Of a stretch of DNA of 64,000 bases, positions 35,521-36,324 are shown in pieces. The DNA lies in the sequence record PV245934.1. The stretch is one strand, 5' to 3'. A program made the translations under genes and the position numbers. Every line of letters begins with the position of its first letter. Positions within the stretch are counted from its first letter, which is position 1. The DNA comes from Escherichia phage sutha. The notes beneath the pieces were generated by a model that ran no database searches, was not told where the DNA came from, and was given only the letters and a program-made list of their open reading frames with translations.

Positions 35521-35793
35521 TCATTTTAAATAAATTGCGTATTTTTTATAGCCACCAGGCTCGTGTCGAAGACCCTTATCATTAGCAAAACGCTCAATGT
35601 TGTTAATTTGATTCTGGTCAAGTTCAGAGATGTCAAACACGAAATAGTTACGTTTGTTACCAACTGTTACATAGTCAGTTAAATCAATACCATATAGGTA
35701 ATTGATGTTATCAATCATAGTCTTGACAGCTTTGCTAATTTTTACTTCTTCATTAAGAGCAGATTCAACGATAAACTCTTTAAATGTTTTCAT
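35521..35793 (-). CDS. head internal protein with capsid targeting sequence (ipI-locus position)
   Basis: N-terminal MKTFKEFIVESA leader; immediately downstream of 57B; palindromic early promoter upstream. Confidence 0.6.
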   Translation of the reverse strand: MKTFKEFIVESALNEEVKISKAVKTMIDNINYLYGIDLTDYVTVGNKRNYFVFDISELDQNQINNIERFANDKGLRHEPGGYKKYAIYLK

Positions 35794-35813
35794 TTTATTT
35801 TCCTAATTAATTT

Positions 35814-35853
35814 TGATGAGGTAATAGTATCACTACCTCATCAGTATGTAAAC
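35814..35853 (-). promoter_or_regulatory. early promoter embedded in 10-bp perfect inverted repeat
   Basis: tgatgaggta atagtatcac tacctcatca, then GTTTAC -35; upstream of ipI-locus gene. Confidence 0.5.
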
Positions 35854-35865
35854 AACTTTGTGAAA

Positions 35866-36324
35866 TTATTTTAAATCATCTGCCCAATCGAGTTTAAGAG
35901 GCTCTTTGTATTCACGATCTAATACGACCGGAATTTGTACATCACCGCTAAATGATAAGGGTCCAACATTATAAGACAATGTTATATGCGGTGTGTAATC
36001 ATCAAAATCATGTGTAGCACCTAGTGCCCGCGCATACATGTGTCGACAGCGCAGATATTCAGAATCTAGCACAAGTACAAGAGTCGATCCATCTTGTGTT
36101 TTCCATACTTCTAAATGTCCAGAAGAAGCTACTTCAAAACTTCCACTCGATGGAACATATGGAACATTTATTCTTGAATAACATATGGTCGAATGAATTT
36201 TTTCTCTAGGAACTGGATTAGGAACACGTAAAGAGCGCTGGAGTTCTTCCAGCGCATCAAGTGTTAATTCTGAAAACTTAGCTGCTACATAAAGACCCGT
36301 TGAAAAGTCTTTAAATTCCATCAT
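35866..36324 (-). CDS. 57B: 2H phosphoesterase, gene 57B (Acb1 anti-CBASS nuclease in T4)
   Basis: 152 aa downstream of 57A; two H-x-T/S motifs (HSTICY, HITLSY) characteristic of 2H phosphoesterases. Confidence 0.8.

Follow-up and report, generated by a model that had tools for sequence, protein, structure and literature searches.

The combination of acb1 (gene 57B) and ipI as neighboring genes has already been named an anti-defense island (Hobbs et al. 2022, PMC9117128). T4 57B, the first of the two, is a published anti-CBASS nuclease, Acb1, in which the HxT/HxT tetrad H44, T46, H113 and T115 forms the acid-base catalytic center, and the evidence for it comes from direct biochemical work, from a structure crystallized with 3'3'-cGAMP, and from a T4 phage with acb1 deleted that was engineered for in vivo tests (PMC9117128). 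Solved structures 7T26 and 7T27 represent the Erwinia phage FBB1 orthologue of T4 Acb1. The second gene belongs to the internal proteins (Ips), at least ten of which exist, with targets assigned for Ip1, Ip2 and Ip3 only; each of these three inhibits a different Type IV restriction enzyme of the GmrSD type and gives no cross-protection, and homology among them is absent outside the leader (Silas et al. 2025, PMC12373910). In the T4 leader, or capsid-targeting sequence (CTS), positions 4 and 7 direct targeting and positions 8 and 10 direct processing, with the prohead protease gp21 cutting after L/I-x-E (PMC9026906). Finally, promoter-early stem-loop (PeSL) elements, which have the consensus TTTACW-N17-TAYWAT in the T4/PST group, have been linked to the shuffling of cassettes at the IP locus (PMC4122927). 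Here, we describe how the corresponding locus of Escherichia phage sutha (PV245934.1) compares with these systems, based on a stretch of 64,000 nucleotides (the window).

Results

The locus and its gene order

Positions 35521-36324 of the window are framed exactly by two minus-strand ORFs, one of 90 aa (35521-35793, ip9 below) and one of 152 aa (35866-36324, 57B or acb1). The source phage is a Tequatrovirus (T4-like), the window being part of its genome, and a 2.9-kb query around the locus matched 903 phage records, 399 of which cover at least 80% of the query, mostly at 90-99% identity. The order of genes along the minus strand (tRNA cluster, tRNA.2, tRNA.3, tRNA.4-like, 90-aa ORF, 57B, 57A, gene 1, gene 3, gene 2) is that of T4, with the 90-aa ORF replacing ipI. 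The upstream neighbor of 57B is the tail-fiber chaperone gene 57A (36321-36563, minus strand), whose stop codon overlaps the 57B start, followed by gene 1 (dNMP kinase; 36563-37276, minus strand); downstream of the 90-aa ORF, a tRNA.4-like gene for a predicted membrane protein of 61 aa (35277-35462, minus strand) forms the other edge of the ip slot. The window ends in gene 18, with genes 21 and 22 located beyond it. Both ORFs are genuine genes as opposed to chance ORFs, given their conservation across hundreds of phage genomes and dN/dS values below 1 in most pairs. The plus-strand ORFs at 35563-35682, 35702-35806, 36024-36209 and 36038-36181 were dismissed, being short and antisense to well-supported genes.

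A late-promoter-like motif, TATAAATA, was found inside gene 1 (36919-36926, minus strand) as a consensus match, and might give rise to late read-through transcripts over 57A-57B-ip9; the window holds 15 matches to the motif vs. 11 expected, which alone is not significant. The tRNA cluster (33555-34507, minus strand) comprises ten tRNAs (Arg, Asn, Tyr, Met/Ile-CAU, Thr, Ser, Pro, Gly, Leu and Gln), that is, those of T4 plus two (Asn and Tyr), in an arrangement like that of phages GiZh and 236Ecol005PP. Adjoining tRNA-Arg at the end of the cluster is an ORF of 184 aa (32979-33533, minus strand) that weakly matches PHROGs of endonucleases and homing endonucleases (PHROG 5032; 'YYKIGRS' motif); in T4, the homing endonuclease segB sits inside the corresponding tRNA cluster.

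57B is Acb1

The 57B product, a 2H phosphoesterase, matched the Pfam family PF23474 (Acb1) with E = 8e-60 and 201.2 bits (cut-off of 27), its residues 9-150 spanning the complete profile (positions 1-144 of 144). It is identical to T4 57B (NP_049750) at 151 of the 152 positions, the conservative change V52I (I52 here) being the only difference between the two proteins (some annotators use the second Met as the start, which gives 151 aa). The closest solved structure is that of Acb1 (7T26, E = 6e-62), and 7T26 and 7T27 are the only relatives in the PDB. Both catalytic H-x-T motifs, which the initial annotation had reported, were recovered on the alignment with T4 Acb1 (H44-S-T46 and H113-I-T115), and the C-terminal lid (residues 121-152, a region that includes T4 E141) is identical to that of T4, as is the place of the gene after 57A and before the ip slot. 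The same annotation had stated that the T4 57B product degrades cyclic nucleotide immune signals, and this is confirmed by the published work on the T4 enzyme (PMC9117128). Given its 99% identity to the assayed protein, the 57B product described here would be expected to cleave 3'3'-cGAMP and cAAA and to provide CBASS rescue.

The gene in the ipI slot belongs to the Ip9 family

The 90-aa ORF matched PHROG 7673 'internal head protein' over its full length (E = 2.5e-54, positions 1-90 of 90) and is placed between 57B and tRNA.4, i.e., in the T4 ipI slot, which is one of two ip loci (the other being next to gene e). A tblastn search with its product recovered about 199 GenBank phage records, with identities of 97.8% to Escherichia phage LH2, 84% to the RB32 'Ip9' and 83% to VR7 and VR25, while identity to the RB15 Ip9 UniRef entry is 82%. 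By sequence, we identify the product as Ip9 of the named T-even family (RB15, K3, RB32). The Ip9 proteins of RB15, K3, RB32, VR7 and IME08 (PHROG 7673) share with it the length of 90 aa, the type of CTS and the locus, at 80-98% identity; the few substitutions that distinguish the present protein from these named members lie in residues 4-35, and the C-terminal block N-I-E-R-F-A-N-D-K-G-L-R-H-E...G-Y-K-K-Y-A-I is present, with every invariant Ip9 column retained. The name Ip9 reportedly stems from the T-even ip-locus literature (Repoila et al. 1994).

The first ten codons of ip9 (35764-35793, minus strand) encode a capsid-targeting sequence, MKTFKEFIVE, with gp21 cleavage predicted after E10 (I-V-E, followed by S). 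Positions 4 and 7 are aromatic (F4 and F7), I8-V9-E10 fits the L/I-x-E processing site, and I8 and E10 are invariant across 13 homologues. Because the N-terminus fits the T4 CTS rules and these two residues are invariant, packaging of Ip9, cleavage to a mature protein of 80 residues and injection are strongly implied, and we consider it very likely that Ip9 is packaged and injected; a literature search for published virion proteomics on Ip9 found none. T4 IPI/IPI*, the inhibitor of GmrSD from strain CT596, occupies the same slot, is of similar size and has the delivery mode that is predicted for Ip9 (leader MKTFKEF..., gp21 cut after Glu, injection). However, the alignment between Ip9 and T4 IPI is restricted to the N-terminal 7 residues, MKTFKEF, with which the leader begins, and the propeptide is 10 aa in Ip9 vs. 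19 aa in T4 IPI. Hence, two further statements of the initial annotation, that a capsid-targeted internal protein occupies the T4 ipI position and that it is a variant distinct from the T4 ipI product, hold (the mature part is unrelated to IPI), and a third, that the T4 ipI product inhibits a modification-dependent restriction enzyme, agrees with Ip1 being a GmrSD inhibitor (PMC12373910).

A related side observation concerns the 'ip7 protein' of Escherichia phage OLB35 (P0018, 77 aa), which is a chimera of an unrelated, CTS-less N-terminal part of 42 residues and the last 35 residues of Ip9, and looks like a product of recombination within the ip locus.

The mature Ip9 domain

The mature domain (residues 11-90; 35524-35763, minus strand) is predicted to form a helix, two strands, a helix and two strands, and is near-neutral, with a pI of about 6.5 vs. 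9.0 for IPI*. The prediction comes from an AlphaFold model (21 sequences; mean pLDDT 81, pTM 0.65), in which this helix-strand-strand-helix-strand-strand domain follows the CTS helix. Fold searches with this predicted alpha/beta structure returned no informative match, and IPI* was not among the matches; a sequence search of PDB chains at E <= 10 gave no match, and scans of Pfam, NCBIfam and PADLOC no significant family. No sequence or fold similarity was detected between mature Ip9 and Ip1, Ip2 or Ip3, a low-power test (Ip1-3 are mutually non-homologous, and we found no solved structure for Ip2 or Ip3). An exhaustive HMM search of 1.84 billion representatives (E <= 0.001) recovered 14 clusters, all of them small proteins of phage type or the large protein of Kuttervirus type described below, and no bacterial family whose function could be borrowed for Ip9.

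Two residues, R68 and G81, are invariant across all groups with an Ip9 domain, and N61, E78 and A86 are nearly so. The C-terminal half is strongly kept from Straboviridae to siphophages and is invariant among close relatives, the changes among which are concentrated in residues 4-35. Pairwise dN/dS was 0.16-1.1 for Ip9 vs. 0-0.15 for 57B in the same phage pairs, values that are based on very few sites; the Ip9 ratio is above that of 57B, but the substitutions are too few to support a call of positive selection. An Ocr-like DNA-mimic mechanism was also considered, and is unlikely because mature Ip9 has no net negative charge.

Slot content, flanking repeats and the second ip locus

The content of the ip slot varies among close relatives of the source phage. 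Ip9 is the sole gene in the slot of the source phage and of LH2, which has an identical 57B-Ip9-tRNA.4 layout; RB32 carries Ip5-Ip9-Ip7, separated by the same repeats (see below), 236Ecol005PP carries Ip9 and then a second, unnamed ORF of 102 aa, GiZh carries ipV and ipVI, and T4 carries ipI.

The two sides of ip9 carry an imperfect repeat in direct orientation, about 80 nt long (35457-35538 vs. 35788-35883), in three adjacent segments that are 75-84% identical. The 57B-ip9 intergenic cassette (35794-35865, minus strand) contains an early-promoter-like GTTTACA-N17-TACTAT (35852 to 35824), a 13-bp hairpin (35814-35843) and the Shine-Dalgarno sequence AGGA, and the ip9-tRNA.4 intergenic cassette, which represents the second repeat copy (35463-35520, minus strand), contains GTTTACT-N17-TATTAT (35519 to 35491), a 12-bp hairpin (35482-35509) and the Shine-Dalgarno sequence GAGGAG. 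That is, each copy presents on the coding strand GTTTAC(A/T)-17 nt-TA(C/T)TAT, a hairpin, and a Shine-Dalgarno sequence just 5' of an ATG. The two hairpins have folding energies of -17.4 and -16.4 kcal/mol (z = -3.4 and -3.5, respectively; 0 of 200 shuffles fold as well), and the differences between them are compensatory (GATGAGG/CCTCATC vs. GATAGGG/CCCTATC). The same element also separates 57B, ipI and tRNA.4 in T4 as well as Ip5, Ip9, Ip7 and tRNA.4 in RB32, with varying combinations of its 5' and 3' halves, and the RB32 record annotates a 43-bp direct repeat that flanks Ip9 and Ip7. The PeSL cassettes of T4-like phages (Arbiol 2010; Comeau 2014) show the same -35/-10 pattern, stem-loop and Shine-Dalgarno sequence on both sides of a variable gene, although here the stem-loop overlaps both the spacer and the -10 region of the promoter, whereas it lies upstream of the promoter in the published PeSL. 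On these sequence features, we assign the repeats flanking ip9 to the known PeSL-type shuffling cassettes.

Two CTS-bearing ORFs are found in the second ip locus, beside the lysozyme gene e (27595-28089). The ORF of 105 aa (27206-27523, minus strand; PHROG 3966) begins with MKTYKEFIAE, followed by S, and matches T4 IPII and IPIII in the leader only; the ORF of 157 aa (26717-27190, minus strand; PHROG 3155 'internal virion protein') begins with MKTYQEFITE, followed by A, and matches IPIII in the leader only and IPII weakly (31% over 77 residues). This pair of ORFs is common to 56 phage records. The source phage carries none of the mature domains of T4 Ip1-3, and has three other CTS proteins instead (Ip9 and the proteins of 105 and 157 aa). 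Just past this locus is an ORF of 196 aa (26033-26623, minus strand) that matches PHROG 1488, a family of unknown function, and has a weak P-loop/terminase-like match. The counterpart position in T4 holds denV, and therefore the gene content around the second ip locus also differs from T4.

The Ip9 domain outside Straboviridae

The mature Ip9 domain was also found outside Straboviridae, without a CTS. In the Kagunavirus JSSK01, a homologous ORF of 72 aa (L005:4007-4225), which is also present in about ten close relatives, heads an operon of small early genes, and in the Seuratvirus KS_A3 (Queuovirinae), an ORF of 74 aa (L007:3992-4216) is found among small early genes. These siphophage proteins show 43-50% identity to the mature Ip9 domain, and they are not truncated annotations, since in-frame stops are found just upstream in both JSSK01 and KS_A3. 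The KS_A3 copy is annotated as 'internal head protein', a label that, in a siphophage, is probably a wrong transfer.

The third context is a protein of 964 aa from the Salmonella phage allotria, a Kuttervirus (L006:1367-4261), of which the C-terminal ~80 residues are Ip9-like (PHROG 7673, E = 3e-8); in a related metagenomic protein of 861 aa, the Ip9-like domain is internal. The allotria protein begins with MAIPSFLNFLEE, followed by S, and its neighbors (L006:4334-4903 and 4913-5152) begin with MKPFIEYFKE, followed by Q, and MKGFKDFLTE, followed by A. These N-termini resemble T4-type CTS/gp21-site motifs, and the genes may represent an unannotated internal-protein cluster of Ackermannviridae.

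CTS-less Ip9 homologues occur in phages without glucosyl-hmC DNA, which speaks against strict glc-hmC specificity of the target. Seuratvirus and Kuttervirus modify their DNA, and JSSK01 encodes a DNA cytosine methyltransferase; modified DNA in the three groups would fit Ip9 targeting a modification-dependent nuclease, although this is weak evidence. Since the domain is kept as an immediate-early protein in siphophages and as a predicted injected protein in myophages, it has the look of an effector aimed at the host, not of a component of the head.

Discussion

Taken together, the gene identities, motifs, synteny and repeats described here, combined with the literature on T4 for Acb1 chemistry, CTS-dependent packaging and the targets of Ip1-3, lead us to favor, with somewhat more confidence than doubt, the explanation that the locus is the 57B/ip anti-defense island of Tequatrovirus, made up of Acb1, an injected Ip9 and a PeSL-bounded cassette. 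Under this explanation, Acb1 would be produced after infection and act as a metal-independent 2H phosphoesterase that opens the CBASS cyclic oligonucleotides (3'3'-cGAMP, cUA as well as cAAA), cutting 3' of adenosine over the H44/T46/H113/T115 tetrad, so that the CBASS effector is never activated. Ip9, in turn, would be made late, dock onto the scaffolding core of the prohead through its 10-residue CTS, and be cut by gp21 after I-V-E10, with the mature protein of 80 residues staying in the head (probably tens to hundreds of copies per head) and being injected with the DNA, and hence present before any phage gene expression. The ip gene itself would be a cassette bounded by promoter/stem-loop repeats, recombination between which swaps ip genes among related phages.

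What Ip9 does after injection is addressed by analogy. A literature search for Ip9 and Ip4-Ip8 returned nothing relevant (the matches concerned inositol phosphates), and we infer from Ip1-3 that Ip9 is injected and inhibits a host nuclease, most likely binding and blocking one particular enzyme that attacks incoming modified DNA. An inhibitory role against host defense is, in our judgment, probable, and the CTS-less copies in the early operons of Kagunavirus and Seuratvirus support it, as they fit a host-directed effector better than a structural part of the head; so do the non-basic character of mature Ip9 and the presence of three other CTS proteins in place of the T4 Ip1-3 mature domains. 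Our best guess is that Ip9 targets a Type IV restriction enzyme of the GmrSD family, its subtype differing from those blocked by T4 Ip1, Ip2 and Ip3, a guess that we would rate at a little under even chances. It is reasonable to expect, as the initial annotation suggested, a target different from that of T4 IPI, because Ip1-3 are each specific for one GmrSD variant, Ip9 has no similarity to IPI beyond 7 residues, the two proteins differ in propeptide and pI, and IPI* was not recovered as a fold match. The packaging, cleavage, anti-defense role and target of Ip9 are what we infer for this phage.

Several other readings of the two genes deserve consideration. For 57B, the name 'RNA ligase', used both by PHROG 755 and by the RefSeq product name of the T4 protein, as well as the membership of LigT in the 2H superfamily, could be taken to indicate an RNA ligase or a LigT-like 2',5' RNA repair enzyme rather than an anti-CBASS nuclease; yet the T4 protein is a cyclic-oligonucleotide phosphodiesterase by biochemistry, by the 3'3'-cGAMP structure and by the acb1 deletion phage (PMC9117128), and with one conservative residue separating the two proteins, we give this reading hardly any credence. 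The label is a legacy of 2H-superfamily membership, superseded by PMC9117128. For Ip9, it is conceivable that the protein has no anti-defense role but is a core or DNA-associated filler of the head, its variability reflecting neutral drift in a dispensable gene. Such a reading resembles the historical view of the T4 internal proteins, which the phage can do without on laboratory hosts and which bind DNA at low salt (PMC9026906), and Ip9 shows no functional motif or informative fold match. Nonetheless, we consider it improbable: the near-neutral pI makes mature Ip9 poorly suited to neutralizing DNA charge (and argues equally against an acidic DNA mimic), its C-terminal half is strongly conserved all the way to siphophages, CTS-less copies are found in phages with unrelated heads, and Ip1-3 all turned out to be inhibitors (PMC12373910).

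Alternatively, Ip9 might be an injected anti-defense protein whose target is not a glc-hmC-specific GmrSD enzyme but a modification-dependent nuclease of broader specificity or an unrelated immediate-early defense. This would explain how the same domain, with its core motif conserved in all groups, can serve phages with different DNA chemistries, i.e., as a stand-alone early protein in Kagunavirus (JSSK01, with its DNA cytosine methyltransferase) and Seuratvirus, and as one module of 860-960-aa proteins in Kuttervirus-type phages. On the other hand, every Ip with a known target inhibits a GmrSD enzyme (PMC12373910), and the modified DNA that these phages share carries little weight, DNA modification being common in phages and, for Seuratvirus and Kuttervirus, a matter of background literature. 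We regard this alternative as rather unlikely, and retain a GmrSD-family enzyme as the best guess for the target of Ip9.

A more speculative extension, which we put forward only tentatively and at doubtful odds, is that the mature Ip9 domain represents a portable inhibitor module, the delivery mode of which was swapped among phage families. The module would be injected by means of a 10-residue capsid-targeting tag in Straboviridae, be embedded in a very large protein with a CTS-like N-terminus within a CTS-bearing gene cluster in Kuttervirus, and be expressed as an immediate-early protein in Kagunavirus and Seuratvirus. If true, the target would be a defense that is common to enterobacteria and acts on chemically different phage DNA, not a glc-hmC-specific enzyme, and internal proteins in general would be ordinary early anti-defense genes that gained a targeting tag.

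With respect to novelty, Acb1 is already known and characterized, and we add nothing new on 57B. Likewise, Ip9 is a known, named and widespread family, of which the present variant is common, and the 57B-Ip9-tRNA.4 layout already exists in a deposited genome (LH2), making the arrangement an ordinary one for this phage group. Modestly new is that the Ip9 domain recurs in early siphophage proteins that lack a CTS and in large proteins of Kuttervirus, which suggests that the targeting tag is a swappable delivery device.

In conclusion, the two genes would arm a T4-like phage at two time points, with a pre-made, injected protein acting first and an enzyme that silences the nucleotide alarm acting later. 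Since Ip1, Ip2 and Ip3 are each specific to a GmrSD subtype, every untested Ip is a ready probe for a new subtype of host restriction enzyme, and each is a candidate predictor of the host range of therapeutic phages. With its complete, non-T4 set of three internal proteins, the source phage represents a convenient natural test case.
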